Shown here: piece after piece, positions 3,332 to 37,928 of the stretch
How the letters are laid out: each line of letters starts with the position of its first letter
Position numbering within the stretch: position 1 is the stretch's first letter
IMG/VR virus record: IMGVR_UViG_3300024581_002691
Span: 1-38,015 of that record
Source of the DNA: a virus
Reading direction: 5' to 3' (one strand)
DNA: 38,015 bases
Notes under the pieces: model-generated
What the model saw: only the letters and a program-made list of their open reading frames with translations
What the model was told of the DNA's origin: nothing
Databases searched by the model: none
Translations under genes and position numbers: made by a program

Positions 3332-3898
3332 TTATCTATCCAATTGTCCGCGACTCTTCAGCAACTCGATCGGTTCTTTTACTTGCTCTCTTATTAGCTG
3401 ATTTATTCTATTTGCCACCATTGCCATATCATCGCTCAAATATAGCATCTCTGACTCTTCTTCGGGTATATCAATAACTTTATTAAGCTCGTTTAGAAAA
3501 ACGACTTTTAACATCCGATTATTTTTAAGCTCATTAATCAAGAAACTACAACGCTCAGATTTCATTCTAAGCTCTGCCGGGTAAAAAAGATTATGCACTT
3601 CATTGGCTCGAAGTTCGAGCAAGTGTCTATCATTGCCTTGCTGTGTAGACGCCAAATTTCTGATGGTCGATACTAAATCATCACAGCTTATATTACGTAG
3701 TTGTGCGGAACGTATTAGCTGATTTGCAGTGACTCTGACCGCTTGCCTTGCAGCAACACCAATTTGGTCCTGTGTTACATTATTTATATCTAAATCCACA
3801 TGGCGTGCAGCAACGGGCTCATCAAACATTCTTTCGTTAATTTCATTAGTTATTGATGACATTGAGGAACTTCTTGATAAGCTTTGATTATCCATCAA
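3332..3898 (-). CDS. hypothetical protein between endolysin and holin
   Basis: 188-aa ORF, coupled to the endolysin gene (4-nt overlap). No TM segment or recognisable motif. Confidence 0.5.
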   Translation of the reverse strand: MMDNQSLSRSSSMSSITNEINERMFDEPVAARHVDLDINNVTQDQIGVAARQAVRVTANQLIRSAQLRNISCDDLVSTIRNLASTQQGNDRHLLELRANEVHNLFYPAELRMKSERCSFLINELKNNRMLKVVFLNELNKVIDIPEEESEMLYLSDDMAMVANRINQLIREQVKEPIELLKSRGQLDR

Positions 3899-4452
3899 TC
3901 AATCCTTTGCTTAATCCAACCATAGACAAATTTCTCATCTTTTTCTCTTCTTTCTGCTAATTCAATATAGAAATTACACTGTAACGAGTTTAGAGCTTTA
4001 AACAGTACTTCTTCGTCTCTCAACTCTAAGTATGTACATAAGGCTAAAATAGTTTTGGGCCCTATAATTTTATCGACTTCTATGTCGCCGTAGATCGACT
4101 CTGATCGATTGAACACATTTAAGCTACGCTGTAAAAATTCAGCTGCTCTACTAACGCCGAGATTCACTCCAATATCAAAAAACTTTCCCGCAATACTTTC
4201 TGATAGTGAGCAGATCTCATCGCACTTAAGCGGGGTCCAATATCTTGAATCATAAACAGACCTGGCGAATTCTATAGGCATATCTTTCATATTCCCTTTA
4301 TACCCGCATGCTTCGGCCACAGCTTTCGTTATTCCGTGGTTAGTCTCTCCACCTGAATCAGTTGGATCATCTACGTAACCACCTTCCACAGCGATTACTT
4401 TATCAATGATCCCATCTCTAATTTCTGCTATTGTTTTTGCCATAGTTGCCAC
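3895..4452 (-). CDS. endolysin, glycoside hydrolase family 108 N-terminal domain plus PG_binding_3-like C-terminal domain
   Basis: EGGYVDDPTDSGGETNHGIT is the GH108 catalytic signature. A later IIGPKTILAL resembles the peptidoglycan-binding repeat. Confidence 0.85.
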   Translation of the reverse strand: MATMAKTIAEIRDGIIDKVIAVEGGYVDDPTDSGGETNHGITKAVAEACGYKGNMKDMPIEFARSVYDSRYWTPLKCDEICSLSESIAGKFFDIGVNLGVSRAAEFLQRSLNVFNRSESIYGDIEVDKIIGPKTILALCTYLELRDEEVLFKALNSLQCNFYIELAERREKDEKFVYGWIKQRID

Positions 4453-4901
4453 TCTACTTGCACCCCGATAGCATCATACATAATATCGTCTTGCCCAAGA
4501 TAACAGCTATGATGTGTATATCGAGTATTTACACGTATATTCTCTTTTGATGATTCCCATATGTTGAACCAGACTCCAAGGTTAGATGTCCCACGATCAT
4601 CGAAAGAATCTTTAACACATTGCGGCGATTGATCTTTTGTATAGTCCAAACCTAGGTAAATTCCGGCATCATTGAAAAAATTACTAGCATTGGCATTATT
4701 AGGCAAAAAAGAAATTGCTAATCCCAGTATTGTTGTAACAAAAATAGCCAACAATGCTGACTTTATGGAGTCTTTGTTGTTATCAACATATTGTCTAATA
4801 CTAATTTTCTTAAAACGCAATGTTATAAATGCTGTGATAATGACAACAGAGAATATTATGGACAGAAAGACAATCAGATCGTTTAACAATTCAGTCCCCA
4901 A
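4428..4901 (-). CDS. membrane or secreted protein with a beta-rich C-terminal domain (weak PagL-like HxS motif)
   Basis: TTG start, so the N-terminus is uncertain. Two hydrophobic segments; the second ends in a signal-peptidase-like ANA/S. C-terminal YTHHSCYLGQDD...IGVQVEW. Confidence 0.45.
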   Translation of the reverse strand: MGTELLNDLIVFLSIIFSVVIITAFITLRFKKISIRQYVDNNKDSIKSALLAIFVTTILGLAISFLPNNANASNFFNDAGIYLGLDYTKDQSPQCVKDSFDDRGTSNLGVWFNIWESSKENIRVNTRYTHHSCYLGQDDIMYDAIGVQVEWQLWQKQ

Positions 4902-28972: not shown

Positions 28973-29000
28973 TTGACATACTATTAGCATAAGCTATAAT
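28973..29000 (+). promoter_or_regulatory. sigma70-type early promoter (TTGACA, 16-nt spacer, TATAAT)
   Basis: Consensus hexamers read directly. Upstream TTTAGTA is shared with two other promoters. Lies 35 nt upstream of the first rightward gene. Confidence 0.75.
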
Positions 29001-31603: not shown

Positions 31604-32455
31604 ATGCACTATTATTCTTTTAATATTTCTGATTTTTCTCTATCAACGAATCATCTAACGCTAGAAGAAGAAGCCGTATATAGACGACTTCTTGATTATT
31701 ATTATTCCAAAGAAAAGCCCATTCCAGCAGAAACCCAGCCGGTTATTCGTCGGTTAAGGCTAGGTTCACATTCGGATACCGTAGCTTCTATTTTGAACGA
31801 ATTTTTCGAACTTGACGATGATGGTTGGCACAATTCCCGAGCAGATATTGAGATTGCTGCATACCATGACAAAGCAGAAGTAGCGCGCAAAAATGGCAAG
31901 CTCGGCGGTAGACCCCCCAAGAATAAAGGGCTAAAAACCCAGTCGGTTATTTTAGCTAACCCAGCAGAAACCGGATCGAAAGCTAACCAAGAACTAATAA
32001 CTAATAACCAAGAACTAATAACTAATAAACATATACCCACTGCTCCGCACTGGATGAACGCATACGTTGAAACCTTCTGGTCATCTTACCCTAAAAAAAC
32101 GGACAAAAAGAAATCAATTGATCGACTTAAGAAGATGATCAAAAATAAACCTGACGAAGAATTCTTCTACAGCATACTTCACAAAGTTAACGCCAAAGCT
32201 TTAGTCACTGATAAACAATTTTGGCCAAGCCCTGATCGCTATCTGCGAGACGAGCTCTGGAATGATGAAATAATCGAGTACTCAGACAATGAAAAAAATA
32301 GATCTCAGCAACATCGAAAAGAATCTGCTCTCGAAAGAGCCGACAGGCTGCAACGAGAAATGGACACCGGAACCGGAGCGTTTGCAAACCATGGTCGAGT
32401 TCTGGAAGTGGATGACACAATTGTATCAACACAAGTTCCTGAAAGTTTTTGGTAA
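31604..32455 (+). CDS. DUF1376 (YdaU-like) replication-associated protein
   Basis: MHYYSFNISDFSLSTNHLTLEEEAVYRRLLDYYY matches the DUF1376 N-terminal signature. GKLGGRPPKNKG linker. C-terminal FWSSYPKKTDKKKS motif. Confidence 0.75.
   Translation: MHYYSFNISDFSLSTNHLTLEEEAVYRRLLDYYYSKEKPIPAETQPVIRRLRLGSHSDTVASILNEFFELDDDGWHNSRADIEIAAYHDKAEVARKNGKLGGRPPKNKGLKTQSVILANPAETGSKANQELITNNQELITNKHIPTAPHWMNAYVETFWSSYPKKTDKKKSIDRLKKMIKNKPDEEFFYSILHKVNAKALVTDKQFWPSPDRYLRDELWNDEIIEYSDNEKNRSQQHRKESALERADRLQREMDTGTGAFANHGRVLEVDDTIVSTQVPESFW
31985..32026 (+). repeat. two perfect tandem 21-bp repeats (AACCAAGAACTAATAACTAAT), candidate iterons
   Basis: Read directly. Encodes NQELITN twice in the inter-domain linker of the DUF1376 gene. 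Confidence 0.85.
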
Positions 32456-32849: not shown

Positions 32850-32878
32850 TTGACTATAATAGATTAGTTAGATACTAT
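32850..32878 (+). promoter_or_regulatory. sigma70-type promoter (TTGACT, 17-nt spacer, TACTAT) with TTTAGTA upstream element
   Basis: TTTAGTATTGACT is identical to the other early promoters. Lies 34 nt upstream of gene 32912. Confidence 0.6.
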
Positions 32879-32911: not shown

Positions 32912-33265
32912 ATGAACGATGAAAAATATTCTAGTCGAGTTGAAATAGAGAAAAAAGAAAAATGGCTTGATTGGGTAGACGAAATACCTTACTTGAATTT
33001 TGATCCTAATTGGGATGTATCAATTATTCCACCATTTATGTATGCGATGGTTAGATTTAAGGTTAAGTCTGGCGAGGGATTTGTTAGTGTTTATTTGGAT
33101 TGCCACAACAGCTTAGGATATTTCGATGGGCCGTATTGGGAAATTTACCCTTTTCATGATGACGTTTACAGAGTCCAGATAAACGATACAGAAAAATTAA
33201 TGGCTGTTATATCAGAATCTCTTAACTATCAAAACAACTCGAAAGAAACCGAGAAAACATTATGA
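32912..33265 (+). CDS. hypothetical protein (module 1, globular partner)
   Basis: 117-aa ORF with initiation region GAGGAAACGAAAATG. Confidence 0.55.
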   Translation: MNDEKYSSRVEIEKKEKWLDWVDEIPYLNFDPNWDVSIIPPFMYAMVRFKVKSGEGFVSVYLDCHNSLGYFDGPYWEIYPFHDDVYRVQINDTEKLMAVISESLNYQNNSKETEKTL

Positions 33266-33435
33266 ACATAGCAATCATGGCGGCTGCAAAGCCTGGCACT
33301 CAATATCATTCTAGTTCAGGGCCTAGGTACGGTTCTCGGTACGGGTCTCGTTCTGGGCGCTCGCTTGGGTCTCACTCTAAGTCTTATTCTAAGTCTTGGT
33401 ATTGTTCAGCGTCTGGACCTAAAGCAGGCAATTAA
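33262..33435 (+). CDS. 57-aa basic Ser-X repeat mini-protein (MNIAIMAAAKPG...SGPKAGN)
   Basis: Not in the ORF track. ATGA overlap with the upstream stop. N- and C-termini are conserved with 34686..34874. Ser is almost always TCT. Confidence 0.5.
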   Translation: MNIAIMAAAKPGTQYHSSSGPRYGSRYGSRSGRSLGSHSKSYSKSWYCSASGPKAGN

Positions 33436-33464
33436 AAGTTAACTTAACTAAAGAGGAAAAAACT
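33430..33464 (+). promoter_or_regulatory. conserved 35-nt spacer with T7-epsilon-like TTAACTTAA plus SD GAGGA (copy 1)
   Basis: AATTAAAAGTTAACTTAACTAAAGAGGAAAAAACT; two further near-identical copies exist. Confidence 0.6.
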
Positions 33465-33848
33465 ATGGACATAGATGATTTAACATACGGTCAAATCAAA
33501 CAATTAAGCAATCTTTTCAGCAATAATAACATTAGCAATAATCATGGCTTAAACTTCCATGTAGGTAAGAAAGTTATCATTAGGACTTTATCCGCTGGAG
33601 TTTGGTTCGGTAAGATCGAACAAAAATGTGGAGAAGAGGTTATTGTAAAAAACGCGCGTAGAATGTACTCATGGAAAGCTAAAAAATCAATCTCACTAAG
33701 CGGTGTAGCAAAATACGGAATTGATCAAAAAAATAGCCGCATAGCTCCTGCTGTCGATAACGAATGGCTTGTTGCTATTGAATTGATCGGATTAACTGAT
33801 GCAGCAATAGAGTCAATAGAAACAGCGGCTGAAGCTGAGGCCTCGTAA
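33465..33848 (+). CDS. conserved phage protein of unknown function (module 2, globular partner)
   Basis: VGKKVIIRTLSAGVWFGKIE...VKNARRMYSWKAKKSISLSGVAKYG resembles a widespread uncharacterised phage family often found beside ssb. Confidence 0.6.
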   Translation: MDIDDLTYGQIKQLSNLFSNNNISNNHGLNFHVGKKVIIRTLSAGVWFGKIEQKCGEEVIVKNARRMYSWKAKKSISLSGVAKYGIDQKNSRIAPAVDNEWLVAIELIGLTDAAIESIETAAEAEAS

Positions 33849-34063
33849 TGTCTTATTTAGATAAACCAGAAGAAAATGGCGATGGCGATGGCTCTGGCTC
33901 TGGCTATGGCTCTGGCTCTGGCTATGGCTCTGGCTCTGGCTATGGCGATGGCTATGGCTCTGGCTCTGGCTATGGCTCTGGCTCTGGCTATGGCTCTGGC
34001 GATGGCGATGGCTATGGCTCTGGCTCTGGCTCTGGCTATGGCTCTGGCTCTGGCTATGGCTAA
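33848..34063 (+). CDS. 71-aa (Gly-X)30 low-complexity protein with nine GYG motifs
   Basis: TAATG overlap with the upstream stop. The frame choice is uncertain because all forward frames are open. Confidence 0.45.
   Translation: MSYLDKPEENGDGDGSGSGYGSGSGYGSGSGYGDGYGSGSGYGSGSGYGSGDGDGYGSGSGSGYGSGSGYG
33878..34060 (+). repeat. 183-bp hexanucleotide array (GGC-TCT / GGC-TAT / GGC-GAT)
   Basis: Read directly: 30.5 units with no deviation from GGC at every second codon. Confidence 0.9.
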
Positions 34064-34076
34064 TCAATAATCCGGC

Positions 34077-34111
34077 AATTAAAATTTAACTTAAACAAAG
34101 AGGAAAAAACT
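34077..34111 (+). promoter_or_regulatory. conserved spacer with epsilon-like TTAACTTAA plus SD (copy 2)
   Basis: AATTAAAATTTAACTTAAACAAAGAGGAAAAAACT. Confidence 0.6.
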
Positions 34112-34423
34112 ATGAGTACATTTGAATCACCCTACCGCGTTGGTAAAAAATACGTATTTCGCACAGTAACGCAATGTGTAATTGGAGAAATCACAGCGAT
34201 TGTAGGCACCTTTGCTGTGTTGAAACATGCTTCTTGGATTGCTGACACTGGCAGATATCACAACTTCTTTAAAAGCGGTGCTACTGCTCAAGACCTTACT
34301 GAGATAGAGCCGTATCCAGATTGTGAAGATGAAGAGTTTGGCGTTTATAGTTGCACAGTTAATCTTGCGTCTCTTACAGATGCTGGACCTTGGCAACATG
34401 ATTTGCCGCGAAATCAGAAATGA
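34112..34423 (+). CDS. hypothetical protein, shorter paralogue of 33465..33848 (module 3, globular partner)
   Basis: RVGKKYVFRTVTQCVIGEITAIVG aligns with HVGKKVIIRTLSAGVWFGKIEQKCG. Confidence 0.55.
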   Translation: MSTFESPYRVGKKYVFRTVTQCVIGEITAIVGTFAVLKHASWIADTGRYHNFFKSGATAQDLTEIEPYPDCEDEEFGVYSCTVNLASLTDAGPWQHDLPRNQK

Positions 34424-34695
34424 ACGTGGTGATGATGGGGGCTGCAAAGCCTGGGGGTAGGTCTTTGTCTAGGTGCAGGTCAGGGTCTAGGTGGTATTCT
34501 TGGGCTAGGTCTATTTCTCGGGCTAGGCATGAGTCTAGATTTTGGGCTAAATCTAGTTCGTGGGCTAGGTCCTTGTCTAGGTCTTGTTCTAGATCTAGGT
34601 CTTGGTCTAGGTATAAGTATTCTGTTAGATATTGGTCTGTTTACTTTTCTTGCCATAGGCCTGGTTATAGGTCTAGGAGTACATCATGCACGTAG
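34420..34695 (+). CDS. 91-aa basic Ser/Arg/Trp repeat protein (MNVVMMGAAKPGG...)
   Basis: ATGA overlap with the upstream stop. N-terminus conserved with the two paralogues. TCT-AGG hexamer periodicity. Confidence 0.5.
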   Translation: MNVVMMGAAKPGGRSLSRCRSGSRWYSWARSISRARHESRFWAKSSSWARSLSRSCSRSRSWSRYKYSVRYWSVYFSCHRPGYRSRSTSCT

Positions 34696-34874
34696 CAATG
34701 ATGGCAGTTAAAAAGCCTGGCTCTAAATATGGCTCTATTTATATATCTATGTCTAGGTATAGTTATATTTGGTCTTATGTCGGGTCTAGATATAAGTCTA
34801 GGTCTAAGTTTAAATGTTTTTTTAGATATGGCTCTTGGTTTTGGTCTAAGTCTGGACCTAAAGCCGCAAATTAA
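34686..34874 (+). CDS. 62-aa basic Ser/Lys/Tyr/Trp/Phe repeat protein (MHVAMMAVKKPG...SGPKAAN)
   Basis: Both termini are conserved with 33262..33435. 10-nt overlap with the upstream paralogue. Confidence 0.5.
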   Translation: MHVAMMAVKKPGSKYGSIYISMSRYSYIWSYVGSRYKSRSKFKCFFRYGSWFWSKSGPKAAN

Positions 34875-34898
34875 AATTTAACTTAAAAGAGGAAAAAC
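34869..34898 (+). promoter_or_regulatory. conserved spacer with epsilon-like TTAACTTAA plus SD (copy 3), in front of ssb
   Basis: AATTAAAATTTAACTTAAAAGAGGAAAAAC. Confidence 0.6.
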
Positions 34899-35333
34899 AT
34901 GAGAGGCATTAACAAAGCAATTTTGGTTGGATCACTCGGAGCTGATCCAGAGTGTCGAGCAACAAGCACAGGTGAAACAGTCGCTACAATCAGTCTAGCA
35001 ACTAACGAAGAATGGAAAGACAAGCAAGGACTCAAGCAATCTAAAACGGAATGGCATCGCGTTGTTTTTTTCGGGAAGCTTGCGGAGATCGTTCGTGACT
35101 ACTTGAAAAAAGGTTCTTCATGTTATGTCGAGGGCAAGATACAAACACGAAAGTGGCAAGCTGACGACGGCACGGACAGATACACGACAGAAATCGTTGG
35201 TCGTGAAATGCAGATGCTAGGCGGATCTAGCAAAGATGATAATAGTAAAAGTCATGACTCATCAACTCATAATCGTGATGTTAGCAAGCAAACGACAGAC
35301 GAGTGGTTAGCTGACTATAACGCGCCGTTTTAG
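34899..35333 (+). CDS. ssb: single-stranded DNA-binding protein
   Basis: [15 protein letters not shown]...[46 protein letters not shown] is a canonical bacterial-type OB-fold SSB. The acidic tip ends in ...PF. Confidence 0.95.
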
Positions 35334-35558: not shown

Positions 35559-35940
35559 AAATAACAATTTTACTACGCTTGATACAGAAGCTTACGAAAA
35601 GCTGCCAAGTCCTTTTTTGGTTGATGTTGAACTCGATAAGCGCACGAATGAAGAGAACGCGCGATTACATATTTGGCTGCGTCAGTGTGCAAAAGCGCTT
35701 AACGAGCAGAATAAATTTTATAGATACATACATCCGATTACTGGACTTGAAGTTGAAAAAGACTGGGACGAGCGAATATTTAAAGAAATTGTATATCGTC
35801 CTACAATGAACAACATGTGCGGTACACACACGACGACTAAAATGAAAAAATTCGAGCCTGCTGAAATAGCAGAATGTATCGGTCGCGCTTTTTCTATGAA
35901 GAACGTTGCCATTTTACCAATGTGGCCAACTTTGCTATGA
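35533..35940 (+). CDS. ninB: NinB/Orf-family recombination protein
   Basis: LDKRTNEENARLHIWLRQCAKAL and TTKMKKFEPAEIAECIGRAF parallel lambda NinB RSLDQNRKLWACLGDVS and STSRMRVGEFAELLELIQAF. Confidence 0.6.
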   Translation: MKIIIQKTENNNFTTLDTEAYEKLPSPFLVDVELDKRTNEENARLHIWLRQCAKALNEQNKFYRYIHPITGLEVEKDWDERIFKEIVYRPTMNNMCGTHTTTKMKKFEPAEIAECIGRAFSMKNVAILPMWPTLL

Positions 35941-36383
35941 AGGGCCGTACACCCACACAAGAAGAAAGGGAATTCATGGACAAAATAGCTAGAATAGGCT
36001 GTATCGCATGCCGAAAAATGGGTTTCATAAATCACCACATATCACTACATCACTTTGAAGGACGAACAAAAGAAGGAGCGCACTTCAAGGTGCTACCGCT
36101 TTGTGAAAGACATCATCAAATAAAAGACAACATAAAGCCGCCGCGCTGGGAAACTATTCACGACAATAAAAGCAGGTTTGAAAAAGTTTACGGTACAGAA
36201 AGAGAACTATATACAAAATGCTTGGAGATAATAAAGAGTGACACATACTGCTACTATAACGAACTAGATTCACTTGAACTTAGCAGAGACGAACTAAATT
36301 ACGCATCAGAAACGATATCACAATCTGACTTAGAACTTTTCAACGAAGTATATCGACCGTGGCTAACAACGAAGAACACTTAA
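35937..36383 (+). CDS. Ref-like HNH / DUF968 recombination-enhancement nuclease (putative)
   Basis: ATGA coupling to the ninB stop. FMDKIARIGCIACRK....HHISLHH.EGR...G.....VLPLCERHHQ is a Cys/His HNH-type pattern. The track opens at 35874. Confidence 0.6.
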   Translation: MKGRTPTQEEREFMDKIARIGCIACRKMGFINHHISLHHFEGRTKEGAHFKVLPLCERHHQIKDNIKPPRWETIHDNKSRFEKVYGTERELYTKCLEIIKSDTYCYYNELDSLELSRDELNYASETISQSDLELFNEVYRPWLTTKNT

Positions 36384-36700
36384 TCCAAGTTGCTTTGCTA
36401 AATTGGCTTAAGCACTATAACAGTGAAGCATATGGTTTAATTTATGCAAATTGTAACGCGGGTGTAAGAACACCACGTCATGGCAAATATTTCAAAGATG
36501 AGGGCCTTAAACGCTTAACCCTAGCCATGCCTAGAAAAGGCTTCCACGGGCTTTATATGGAGATTAAAACGCTAAAAGGAAGGCCAACAAAAGAGCAACT
36601 AGAATGGTTAGACAAACTTTCTAATCAGGGTTATTTTGCTGTGCTATGCAAAGGGCTAGACGCTGCGATAGATACTATCACAGCTTATCTATCTGACTAG
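36359..36700 (+). CDS. VRR-NUC domain nuclease (putative)
   Basis: GTG start. GFHGLYMEIKTLKGRPTKEQLEWLDKLSNQGYFAVLCKGLD matches the E-x-K core plus the Q..W...L..G tail of VRR-NUC. Confidence 0.55.
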   Translation: MANNEEHLIQVALLNWLKHYNSEAYGLIYANCNAGVRTPRHGKYFKDEGLKRLTLAMPRKGFHGLYMEIKTLKGRPTKEQLEWLDKLSNQGYFAVLCKGLDAAIDTITAYLSD

Positions 36701-37514: not shown

Positions 37515-37928
37515 ATGAACATAGACAAAATAATAGCGGCATCTGGATTATCTAAAGAATGGGCGCAAAGTTGTATTATTCATACAGAAGAGGAAGCACT
37601 AGCAGCTGTAAAAGGAGACGGATTCGCGCTTGAATACGTTAGAAAACAAACAGAAGCGATATGTCTAGCAGCTGTAAAACAAAACGGATTAGCGCTTCAA
37701 CACGTCAGAGAACAAACAGAGGAGATATGTCTAGCAGCAGTAAAACGAAACGGATACGCGCTTAAATTCGTCAGAAAACAAACAGAGGCGATATGTCTAG
37801 CAGCTGTAAAACGAAACGGAGAAGCGCTTGCATACGTCATAAAACAAACGGAGGCGATATGCCTAGAAGCAGTAAAAGAATACAGATACGCGCTTAAATA
37901 CGTAGACTTTACTTTAACTGAGGACTAA
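37515..37928 (+). CDS. DUF4116-type repeat protein (5 x 22-aa repeats), paralogue of 741..1364
   Basis: Same N-terminus (IIAASGLSKEWAQ..II.TEEEALAAVK), same repeats and same C-terminus (KYVDFTLTED). Confidence 0.75.
   Translation: MNIDKIIAASGLSKEWAQSCIIHTEEEALAAVKGDGFALEYVRKQTEAICLAAVKQNGLALQHVREQTEEICLAAVKRNGYALKFVRKQTEAICLAAVKRNGEALAYVIKQTEAICLEAVKEYRYALKYVDFTLTED
37587..37916 (+). repeat. five tandem 66-bp coding repeats inside the second DUF4116 gene
   Basis: Read directly. The units are near-identical to those at 825..1352. Confidence 0.85.

Follow-up and report, generated by a model that had tools for sequence, protein, structure and literature searches.

What do three short, serine-rich open reading frames (ORFs) in the early region of a bacteriophage encode, and how do they relate to the genes of other phages? 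The question is raised by the IMG/VR record IMGVR_UViG_3300024581_002691, a complete metagenomic phage contig of 38,015 bp, which is referred to here as the window. A sequence-only reading of this DNA had proposed three paralogous mini-proteins between positions 33,262 and 34,874, here called ORF1, ORF2 and ORF3, in which Ser alternates with other residues (Ser-X, or S-X). The best overall explanation is that they are genuine Ser-X genes, that they represent a diverged version of a phage module in which an Sm-like gene stands beside a dipeptide-repeat gene, and that their products would help to build higher-order assemblies with nucleic acid, the Sm-like partner or both. Taken as a whole, this explanation has a probability of about 0.5, and its parts, which differ in strength, are graded separately below.

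Features Shared by the Three Ser-X ORFs

The three ORFs lie at the positions and have the lengths first reported for them (Table 1), and all of them begin with the N-terminal box M-[NH]-[IV]-[AV]-[IM]-M-[AG]-[AV]-[AK]-K-P-G. A degenerate DNA pattern of this 5' box matches exactly three sites in the window, namely those of ORF1, ORF2 and ORF3, with 0 matches expected on the basis of 100 shuffles. The C-terminal motif SGPKA[GA]N is shared by two of the ORFs, ORF1 and ORF3. Between the termini lies the alternating Ser-X core, with even/odd Ser counts of 12/2 in ORF1, 22/2 in ORF2 and 4/8 in ORF3, the last of which contains register shifts in its Ser period. Beyond R, W and G, the X residues of these cores include Y, K, F, C, H, L, I, A, V and M.

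Codon usage in the three ORFs is strongly biased. TCT accounts for 10 of 14 Ser codons in ORF1, 18 of 24 in ORF2 and 11 of 12 in ORF3, or 78% in the three together, compared with 22% in the long ORFs of this genome; the alternation itself is less regular than in the relatives described below. In ORF2, 13 of the 17 Arg codons are AGG. The sequence-only reading had called AGG and AGA usually rare, which is not the case here, as AGA makes up 39% and AGG 16% of the Arg codons of this genome. The ATGA start/stop overlaps that it described exist at ORF1 and ORF2 and are absent at ORF3, which instead shares 10 nt with ORF2 and is preceded by an AGGAG sequence 6 nt 5' of its ATG. A synonymous gca/gcc difference, cited in support of the reading frame, is a single difference and too little to indicate selection. 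Between ORF1 and ORF3, the changes in the 5' box number about 1 synonymous and 6 non-synonymous.

In composition, the predicted products are 14–22% basic, 11–23% aromatic and 0–1% acidic, with isoelectric points (pI) of 10.3–11.6 and net charges of +8 to +19. ORF1–ORF3 are very probably genuine phage genes, and they probably encode small, very basic, aromatic-rich proteins which, we infer, are disordered.

Ser-X Arrays Beside A2 Genes in Other Phages

The 103-aa gene whose stop codon overlaps the start of ORF2 belongs to a family designated A2 and has 122 homologue clusters. Arrays comparable to the window cores were first noticed by scanning the loci of A2 homologues for ORFs with a two-residue period, that is, for hexanucleotide arrays. 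The A2 family alignment was used to fetch 36 IMG/VR loci, and 40 A2-anchored loci were counted in all, the window aside. An S-X array of at least 8 units is present in 32 of these 40 loci. Its ORF mostly starts within a few nucleotides of the A2 stop codon, in the form of ATGA or TAATG, and this stop/start overlap suggests translational coupling between the two genes.

The array protein of the relatives has the form M-N-A-A-x-[LM]-R-x-G-[FLY]-D followed by (S-[R/W/G])n, with a length of 37–114 aa. Its median composition is 16% basic and 13.5% aromatic (range of aromatic residues 8–21%) with a pI of 12, and one such protein is deposited as a hypothetical protein in GenBank MW202573. In a control set of 101 unrelated metagenome loci (524 kb), 0 arrays were found, and 80 loci anchored on the single-strand DNA-binding protein (SSB) contained few. 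Altogether, more than 100 loci of the module, including its Gly-X form described in the next section, were collected, with anchor proteins 31–65% identical, and a scan of genome contigs returned five contigs from metagenome-assembled genomes.

The multiplication of mini-genes recurs among phages and is not peculiar to the window. Several relatives carry two S-X ORFs, either in tandem or flanking the Sm-like gene (loci L204, at 3714–3980 and 4330–4674, L208, L229, L219, L220 and L231). Additionally, Gly-Tyr (G-Y) and S-X arrays alternate in loci L232 (about 95–1500) and L234.

Gly-X Arrays and the Predicted Sm-Like Partner Genes

A second array family is associated with genes of the DUF6948 family (PF22253). 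A Gly-X (G-X) array, with X being Y, S, D or N, lies immediately 3' of the DUF6948 gene in 71 of 84 anchored loci. Its product starts with MS[KY]L[ND]KP (the MSKLNKP type) and continues as (G-[Y/S/D/N])n; its Ser codons are of both the TCY and the AGY kind, its Tyr codons TAT or TAC, and its Asp codons GAT or GAC. The window contains an array of this family, which has a TAATG overlap with the PF22253 gene and Gly at every second residue, and its MSYLDKP N-terminus also occurs in loci L296, L297, L305, L306, L309 and L312. Cultured carriers of the G-X array include the Pectobacterium phages Sabo, Ymer, Abuela and others, Dickeya phage Setonix, Vibrio phage IKEMa6-1, Ralstonia phage NK-7 and Iodobacter phage PhiPLPE. 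The G-X ORF is hypothetical in Sabo and unannotated in PhiPLPE (L325, NC_011142, about 1171–1420), where it lies between gp84 and gp83.

Two flavours of the module can thus be told apart, A2 followed by (S-[R/W/G])n and DUF6948 proper followed by (G-[Y/S/D/N])n, and the window has both. The suggestion that the Tyr/Asp/Gly array is the natural partner of the Ser-X proteins found little echo in the other phages, as S-X and G-Y arrays occur within ±2.5 kb of each other in 3 of 40 loci only; such pairing is possible in this genome and is no general rule. In the relatives, the constant neighbour of each array ORF is the upstream Sm-like gene.

The A2 family and the DUF6948 protein of the window are homologous (hhalign probability 97.3%), and their AlphaFold models are confident, with a predicted local distance difference test (pLDDT) score of 88.4 for the 103-aa A2 protein and 90.5 for the DUF6948 protein. 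For the A2 model, the top PDB matches are Sm/LSm proteins (E 0.009–0.2). For the DUF6948 model, nearly all of the top 50 PDB matches are Sm/LSm or snRNP/spliceosome chains (E 0.017–0.1). The matches of both models reach a template modelling (TM) score of up to 0.74 on the target, with a root-mean-square deviation of 2.5–3.3 Å over about 86 columns. The Sm fold is characterised by an N-terminal helix and, after it, a five-stranded sheet that is strongly bent; both proteins are candidates for this fold on the strength of these matches, whose E-values of 0.009–0.2 are weak. Matches in BFVD comprise DUF6948 proteins and one "RNA binding protein" with similar scores. On these models, the two partner genes probably encode proteins with an Sm-like fold. 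The 117-aa gene upstream of ORF1 was also considered as an Sm-like candidate and was rejected (hhalign probability against DUF6948 0.2%).

Judged from these comparisons, S-X and G-X mini-genes appear to constitute a widespread, so far undescribed phage module beside small Sm-like genes. No description of the array families was found in the literature by motif string, by DUF6948/PF22253 or by topic, and neither family is represented in Pfam or PHROGs.

The Coding Frame of the Arrays

The sequence-only reading had preferred the Ser-X frame over an overlapping Leu-Gly frame. Within the window, given the T-A and T-G dinucleotides present, about 10 in-frame stops would be expected in the three cores when third codon positions are permuted, and 0 are observed (joint p about 1e-5 or lower). 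In the 5' box, the Ser-X frame alone is open in all three copies, with stops in both other frames, and the conserved ATG placed on the upstream stop codon belongs to the Ser-X frame only. The +1 frame of TCTNNN, read as CTN NNT, cannot hold a stop, so that its openness is uninformative. On the window alone, the evidence would favour the Ser-X frame only modestly.

The arrays of the relatives speak more clearly. Each array uses its Ser codon uniformly, and the codon differs between phages, with roughly 8 arrays of the TCT, 13 of the TCG, 10 of the AGC and 2 of the AGT type. Depending on this codon, the +1 frame reads (LG)n, (RG)n, (AG)n or (VG)n and the antisense strand (PR)n, (PA)n or (PT)n, whereas the S-[R/W/G] sense frame is constant through all Ser codon types. 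In other words, when the Ser codon changes between phages, the +1 frame changes with it and the Ser-X frame alone is conserved. As TCN and AGY codons are not joined by single substitutions, selection on the encoded Ser alone explains the codon pattern. The comparison of frames in related phages therefore bears out the Ser-X reading: relatives conserve S-X and do not keep the Leu-Gly frame. The Ser-X frame is very probably the coding one.

The competing view, that Leu/Gly-rich hydrophobic peptides of the +1 frame (34529–34711 and 34729–34881) are real products, such as small membrane proteins, draws on the fact that these frames are open and transmembrane-like and that gene callers chose the Leu-Gly frame in L204. 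The openness arises by construction, the Leu-Gly starts have neither a conserved position nor a Shine–Dalgarno (SD) sequence, and the stops in the 5' box and the changing +1 frame of the relatives both speak against it. This translation is effectively refuted by the non-conservation of its frame, and it is hardly credible as a source of real products.

The two arrays of L204 are called at 3751–4014 and 4367–4681 in the Leu-Gly frame. Such choices by gene callers help to explain why the S-X family is under-represented in protein databases. Fusion of the Sm-like gene with the array through a −1 frameshift was considered as well and rejected, given the conserved ATG or GTG with its N-terminal box and the fact that the overlaps are not consistently slippery.

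Array Evolution and Nucleotide Pattern

In the relatives' arrays (n = 26, e.g., L210 from 2761, L237 from 2755 and L240 from 2785), position 4 of the hexamer alone varies, with 1.53 bits, while each of the other five positions has at most 0.25. Every X codon is NGG, and for Arg most arrays rely on either AGG alone or CGG alone. Both array families have the form (GGNNNN)n on the sense strand, and arrays of the AGC type carry AGGAG every 6 nt.

Closely related loci illustrate how the arrays change. Upstream of the array (1,252 nt) and downstream of it (71 nt), loci L221 and L222 show 0 mismatches, and their arrays differ by a net 6 nt and at about 9 positions. Similarly, the arrays of L253 and L257 differ by indels that are mostly multiples of 6 nt. 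This pattern would fit concerted evolution that starts from three unit types and is driven by slippage, with R, W and G all maintained by selection. The target of selection appears to be the composition, that is, a Ser or Gly spacer with Arg/Lys and Trp/Tyr/Phe "stickers", rather than the exact sequence.

Two further explanations of the pattern were rejected. Sequence-specific DNA iterons do not agree with a unit that is TCTNGG, TCGNGG, AGCNGG or AGTNGG depending on the phage, with the encoded Ser-X alone being kept. Adenine mutagenesis of the type found in diversity-generating retroelements does not account for the variation at position 4, as the second A of each unit in AGC arrays is invariant and no reverse transcriptase was seen.

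Relationship of the Window ORFs to the Module

The statement of the sequence-only reading that the family could not be placed stands as regards direct matches, none having been found in Pfam, PHROGs or hidden Markov model (HMM) searches. It does not stand as regards synteny, which places the ORFs in the class of modules linked to DUF6948-like, Sm-fold proteins. As in most relatives, the ATG of ORF2 overlaps the TGA of an A2 gene. ORF3 reads as a tandem second copy, as in L208, L229 and others, and ORF1 as a dispersed paralogue located after an unrelated gene. All three ORFs also agree with the S-X family in composition (strongly basic, almost without acidic residues, 11–23% aromatic) and in their Ser alternation with one dominant codon, TCT. 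Based on synteny, architecture and composition rather than on sequence homology, the trio is classed as a diverged, triplicated local subfamily of the S-X module, and its derivation from the Sm-linked module is considered likely.

Several observations weigh against this placement and against the overall explanation. Neither ORF1 nor ORF3 is located after an Sm-like gene. The restriction of X to R, W and G through NGG codons is not found in the window, where the X set is much broader and no run of 8 clean units occurs. A position-specific scoring matrix of the relatives' N-terminal boxes (n = 24) ranks ORF1 4th, ORF2 175th and ORF3 306th among 972 ORF starts of the window, and what the window boxes share with these boxes is limited to M1, N2, [ILVM]5, M6 and A8; the similarity is not significant. 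Boxes of the window type were found in no other fetched phage locus, and there is no homology at the sequence level between the trio and the relatives, since HMM and word searches return ORF1 itself. The trio could be decaying copies. The Foldseek E-values for the Sm fold are weak (0.009–0.2). Finally, variation at position 4 only and X codons of the NGG type only are not fully explained by protein-level selection alone; a constraint at the level of the nucleic acid is possible, as both array types may be written (GGNNNN)n on the sense strand.

Homology searches were carried out at several levels. Neither ORF1–ORF3 nor six array ORFs of the relatives have a match in Pfam or PHROGs. A word-indexed protein search with ORF1 returned ORF1 alone (P0001), the only member of the trio in the protein collection. 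A full HMM search of 1.84 billion representatives with a profile of the three ORFs brought no homologue beyond ORF1, the other match being a chance match in an FN3-repeat protein. The strict DNA pattern of the 5' box has 0 matches in IMG/VR. Its relaxed form gives at least 120 chance matches in metagenomes, and none of the matches listed is followed by a Ser-X core. No GenBank phage matched the region 31.5–36.5 kb in a near-identity DNA search, locus searches that used the 103-aa or the 117-aa gene as a single-protein query were negative, and Rfam and tRNA scans were empty. Array genes are missed by homology searches because low-complexity filters remove their matches.

Many gut and soil contigs among the matches to the relaxed pattern (L081–L200) show recurrent frames that end in MTIAMMAGKKPG at a stop or begin with MSLTIMAAAKPG. 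These are chance matches unrelated to ORF1–ORF3, and in all likelihood they reflect a conserved gene read in an alternative or antisense frame.

A Repeated Spacer and Shine–Dalgarno Unit

A further feature of the window is a unit of about 35 nt, AATTAAAAKTTAACTTAA..AAGAGGAAAAA, which combines a spacer with an SD sequence and is present in exactly three copies (direct repeats D5 and D6; Table 1). As a pattern, this 3' unit can be written AATTAAAAKTTAACTTAA-N(0,4)-AAGAGGAAAA, and AAGAGGAAAAA has its only perfect matches at 33451, 34098 and 34887. Each copy has a low-complexity ORF before it and the ATG of the next gene after it, to which it supplies the SD sequence.

The unit bears on the conserved C-terminus, which the sequence-only reading had counted in support of the Ser-X frame. 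The likeness of the 3' boxes runs past the stop codon into non-coding DNA at equal identity (83% over 54 nt), so that the C-terminal conservation belongs to a duplicated DNA unit reaching into the intergenic spacer and SD sequence and is no evidence of protein constraint. The arrangement suggests that the low-complexity cassettes spread by recombination at the 3' unit.

Proposed Function and Alternative Explanations

For the function of the module, the following mechanism is proposed. The mini-proteins would act in early infection as multivalent cationic and aromatic tails, which would bind nucleic acid, the Sm-like partner or both and thereby build higher-order assemblies in the replication–recombination module. 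A mini-gene and its Sm-like gene would then form a split-gene analogue of the eukaryotic Sm/LSm proteins with Arg-Gly tails, in which the N-terminal box could serve as a docking element, while the arrays would be built and constantly reshuffled by 6-nt slippage. Condensation driven by cation-pi contacts and nucleic acid, as the sequence-only reading had put forward, is a reasonable expectation from the composition. The assembly mechanism is nevertheless tentative, with somewhat less than an even chance of being correct. A broader version of it is speculative and unlikely to hold in full: many tailed phages may encode a two-component, eukaryote-like system of an Sm ring and a low-complexity tail, in which an Sm-fold hub recruits separately translated dipeptide-repeat proteins of the Arg/Trp or the Tyr/Asp type through their N-terminal boxes, sticker-spacer arrays drive a phage-specific nucleoprotein condensate or coat on replicating or recombining DNA or on early RNA, and 6-nt slippage tunes array length and unit order.

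The alternatives, in falling order of confidence, are a toxin or decoy, neutral filler, a function of the nucleic acid itself, a peptide precursor and the Leu-Gly frame already discussed. According to the first, the proteins are translated and directed against the host: they would damage membranes, coat host nucleic acids or ribosomes, or mimic host ligands, with the Sm-like partner as chaperone or antidote and an arms race behind the hypervariability. Arg/Trp-rich peptides can be membrane-active, and viral GW motifs bind Argonaute, as in the "Ago-hook" suppressors of eukaryotic viruses. The high net charge and aromatic content of ORF1–ORF3 would suit such a role, as would arrays that differ between phages with otherwise identical flanks and an early region rich in accessory genes (Tad2-like, YopX and helix-turn-helix genes in the relatives). 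However, no signal peptide or transmembrane segment is apparent in the mini-proteins, the module adjoins replication and recombination genes rather than lysis genes, and slippage alone predicts hypervariability too. No defence or anti-defence family turned up, though none was specifically tested for. A host-directed weapon or decoy is unlikely on this balance.

Less probable still is the view that the arrays are nearly neutral filler made by slippage, which is incidentally translated between coupled genes, carries the SD sequence of the next gene and contributes to spacing and coupling only. The extreme uniformity of codons within arrays, the polymorphism in unit number, the duplicated spacer and SD unit at the end of the window arrays and the mostly non-synonymous differences between the N-terminal boxes of the window paralogues are all what neutral filler would produce. 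It would not be expected to persist in the module loci over the divergence of their anchors, to keep R, W and G all present in nearly every array, or to retain Ser where the codon family changes between TCN and AGY. The conserved N-terminal boxes and the avoidance of stops in the window cores argue in the same direction; moreover, many arrays of the relatives are the last ORF before a terminator and serve no downstream gene.

The nucleic acid itself could be functional, with (GGNNNN)n serving for example as protein-binding iterons, as hot spots of recombination or priming, as two-tetrad G-quadruplexes or as SD-like sites of ribosome pausing, in which case the ORFs would be by-products. This is improbable, even if GG recurs every 6 nt in both array families, X is limited to NGG despite the existence of other Arg and Gly codons, position 4 of the hexamer alone varies, AGGAG is repeated in the AGC-type arrays, and SSB, RecT and initiator genes are neighbours of the arrays. 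The spacer triplet always encodes Ser and does so from two unrelated codon families (TCT/TCG and AGC/AGT), and G-Y arrays likewise keep Ser by TCY and AGY, which fits protein-level selection and not a DNA motif. The arrays come after a conserved ATG and N-terminal peptide, and there is neither an Rfam match nor an inverted repeat.

It is very improbable that the ORFs are precursors of ribosomally synthesized and post-translationally modified peptides, with the N-terminal box as leader and a Ser/Trp/Lys core as substrate. The conserved box before a variable core has this general form. The core of darobactin is WNWSKSF, and residues WFWSKSG of ORF3 (34825–34860) resemble it, probably as a coincidence of composition. 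The neighbours scanned over 31.6–36.7 kb include no radical-SAM, lanthipeptide or other modifying enzyme and give only DUF1376, DUF6948, SSB, a Ref-like nuclease and VRR-NUC; furthermore, the constant partner is a predicted β-barrel protein of about 100 aa, and the cores are long, repetitive and variable in length. The Leu-Gly frame, ruled out by the relatives, comes last.

Comparison with Known Systems

The proposed Sm-linked module has parallels in several known systems. Eukaryotic and archaeal Sm/LSm proteins such as SmB, SmD1, SmD3, LSm4 and LSm14/Scd6 bear low-complexity Arg-Gly tails. Like them, the phage module joins an Sm-like β-barrel to a repetitive, Arg-containing segment spaced by Gly or Ser in a nucleic-acid-handling context. 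Unlike in them, the phage tail is a polypeptide in its own right, which has an ATG and an N-terminal box and whose start overlaps the stop of its partner; its repeats are S-[R/W/G] or G-[Y/S/D/N] rather than RG/RGG, there is no sequence homology, and the fold is a predicted one.

Proteins of the FUS family combine [G/S]Y[G/S] prion-like domains with RGG domains and are described by a sticker-spacer model in which Tyr and Arg drive phase separation. The window similarly encodes a Tyr-rich, Gly/Ser-spaced array beside Arg/aromatic, Ser-spaced arrays, but the phage proteins are separate and 57–91 aa long, and G-Y and S-X modules usually lie apart. Another comparison is offered by the Bacillus spore-coat protein CotG, a structural protein with H/Y-K-K-S-Y-R-S repeats that is phosphorylated by CotH. 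The window segments SHSKSYSKSWY and SRYKSRSKFK resemble these repeats, and both are encoded by tandem repeats, CotG being disordered and the window proteins presumably so; there is, however, no homology, no kinase is present here, and the context is a phage early region.

In the coronavirus N protein, as in splicing factors with SR/RS domains, a Ser-Arg segment is tied to nucleic-acid binding and condensation (PMC7471607). The phage ORFs share with such proteins the alternating Ser-Arg dipeptides in a basic, presumably disordered segment. They differ in having neither an RNA recognition motif nor any Pfam domain, in being 57–91 aa long and almost wholly repeat, and in that Trp, Tyr, Phe, Gly or Lys alternate with Arg, so that the likeness is compositional only. 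To our knowledge, bacteria have no Ser/Arg kinase partner.

A survey of low-complexity regions in prokaryotes and phages found nucleic-acid-binding regions to be enriched in Gly, Arg and Lys, and aromatics and Arg to be strongly under-represented in prokaryotic and phage low-complexity regions overall (PMC6821194). The arrays resemble the surveyed set as low-complexity segments conserved in phage proteins. They are atypical in the light of that under-representation, the window S-X arrays being 11–23% aromatic and essentially the whole protein.

If the proposed interpretation is true, the arrays represent a large, overlooked class of phage genes that is often annotated in the wrong frame or not at all. 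The switch between TCN and AGY codons for Ser provides unusually clean evidence of protein-level selection on a pure dipeptide repeat, and the arrays are a natural example of composition-constrained, slippage-driven protein evolution, in which 1 nucleotide in 6 varies. By analogy, the pairing with Sm-like genes suggests that bacterial viruses may have a counterpart of the Sm-plus-RG-tail and FUS-like systems that organise eukaryotic RNA–protein granules. The presence of the G-Y module in cultured phages of Pectobacterium, Dickeya, Vibrio, Ralstonia and Iodobacter makes it testable at the bench.

Genomic Neighbourhood

ORF1–ORF3 are located on the + strand in an early, replication-type string of genes (Table 1), and a promoter match precedes the string that holds all low-complexity ORFs. 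With a DUF1376 initiator, SSB, a Ref-like nuclease and VRR-NUC among its predicted members, the region appears to be a replication/recombination module. The relatives have RecT, Erf or SSB close by.

Table 1. Features of the window around the Ser-X ORFs (SD, Shine–Dalgarno sequence; positions in nt of the window).
Feature	Position	Strand	Evidence or remarks
DUF1376/primosomal initiator gene	31604-32455	+	PHROGs/Pfam scans
Putative sigma-70-like promoter, TTGACT-17-TACTAT	32850-32878	+	Consensus scan, 9/12 positions matched; consensus match alone
117-aa orphan gene	32912-33265	+	TGA stop overlaps ORF1 ATG (ATGA); no Pfam/PHROG match
ORF1, Ser-X mini-protein, 57 aa, pI 10.3, net charge +8	33262-33435	+	
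3' unit, copy 1	33430-33464	+	End of ORF1, spacer, SD of DUF6948 gene
DUF6948 (PF22253) gene, predicted Sm/LSm-like fold	33465-33848	+	Pfam E 2e-26
Gly-X array ORF, 71 aa, MSYLDKPEEN-(G-[S/Y/D])30	33848-34063	+	
3' unit, copy 2, with SD	34077-34111	+	After Gly-Tyr ORF, before 103-aa gene
A2-family DUF6948-like gene, 103 aa, predicted Sm/LSm-like fold	34112-34423	+	TGA stop overlaps ORF2 ATG
ORF2, Ser-X mini-protein, 91 aa, pI 11.6, net charge +19	34420-34695	+	
ORF3, Ser-X mini-protein, 62 aa, pI 10.3, net charge +12	34686-34874	+	
3' unit, copy 3, with SD	34869-34898	+	After ORF3, feeds SSB gene
Single-strand DNA-binding protein (SSB) gene	34899-35333	+	Pfam SSB E 1.8e-36; PHROG 44
Ref-like RecA-dependent nuclease	35874-36383		Downstream of SSB; PF16786, E 2e-21
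VRR-NUC nuclease	36359-36700		Downstream of SSB; weak VRR-NUC match

Several other features of the contig were recorded. Avoidance or enrichment of CTAG was considered and rejected, as the tetranucleotide is not depleted in the genome (167 observed, 140 expected). A perfect sigma-70 consensus, TTGACA-16-TATAAT, is located at the divergent early/late junction (28973–29000). The DUF1376/primosomal initiator gene holds a perfect 21-nt tandem repeat, TAACCAAGAACTAATAACTAA, in 2.1 copies (31984–32028), by which NQELITN is encoded twice; it may represent origin iterons inside the initiator gene, as in lambda O. Two DUF4116-repeat proteins lie at opposite ends of the contig, at 741–1364 and 37515–37928 (Pfam E 1e-34 and 2e-31), and their genes are built of 66-nt tandem repeats (837–1339, 7.6 copies, and 37599–37903, 4.6 copies). 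The DUF4116 domain is unusual in a phage, and the protein at 741–1364 additionally has a C-terminal match to a RING-like zinc finger.

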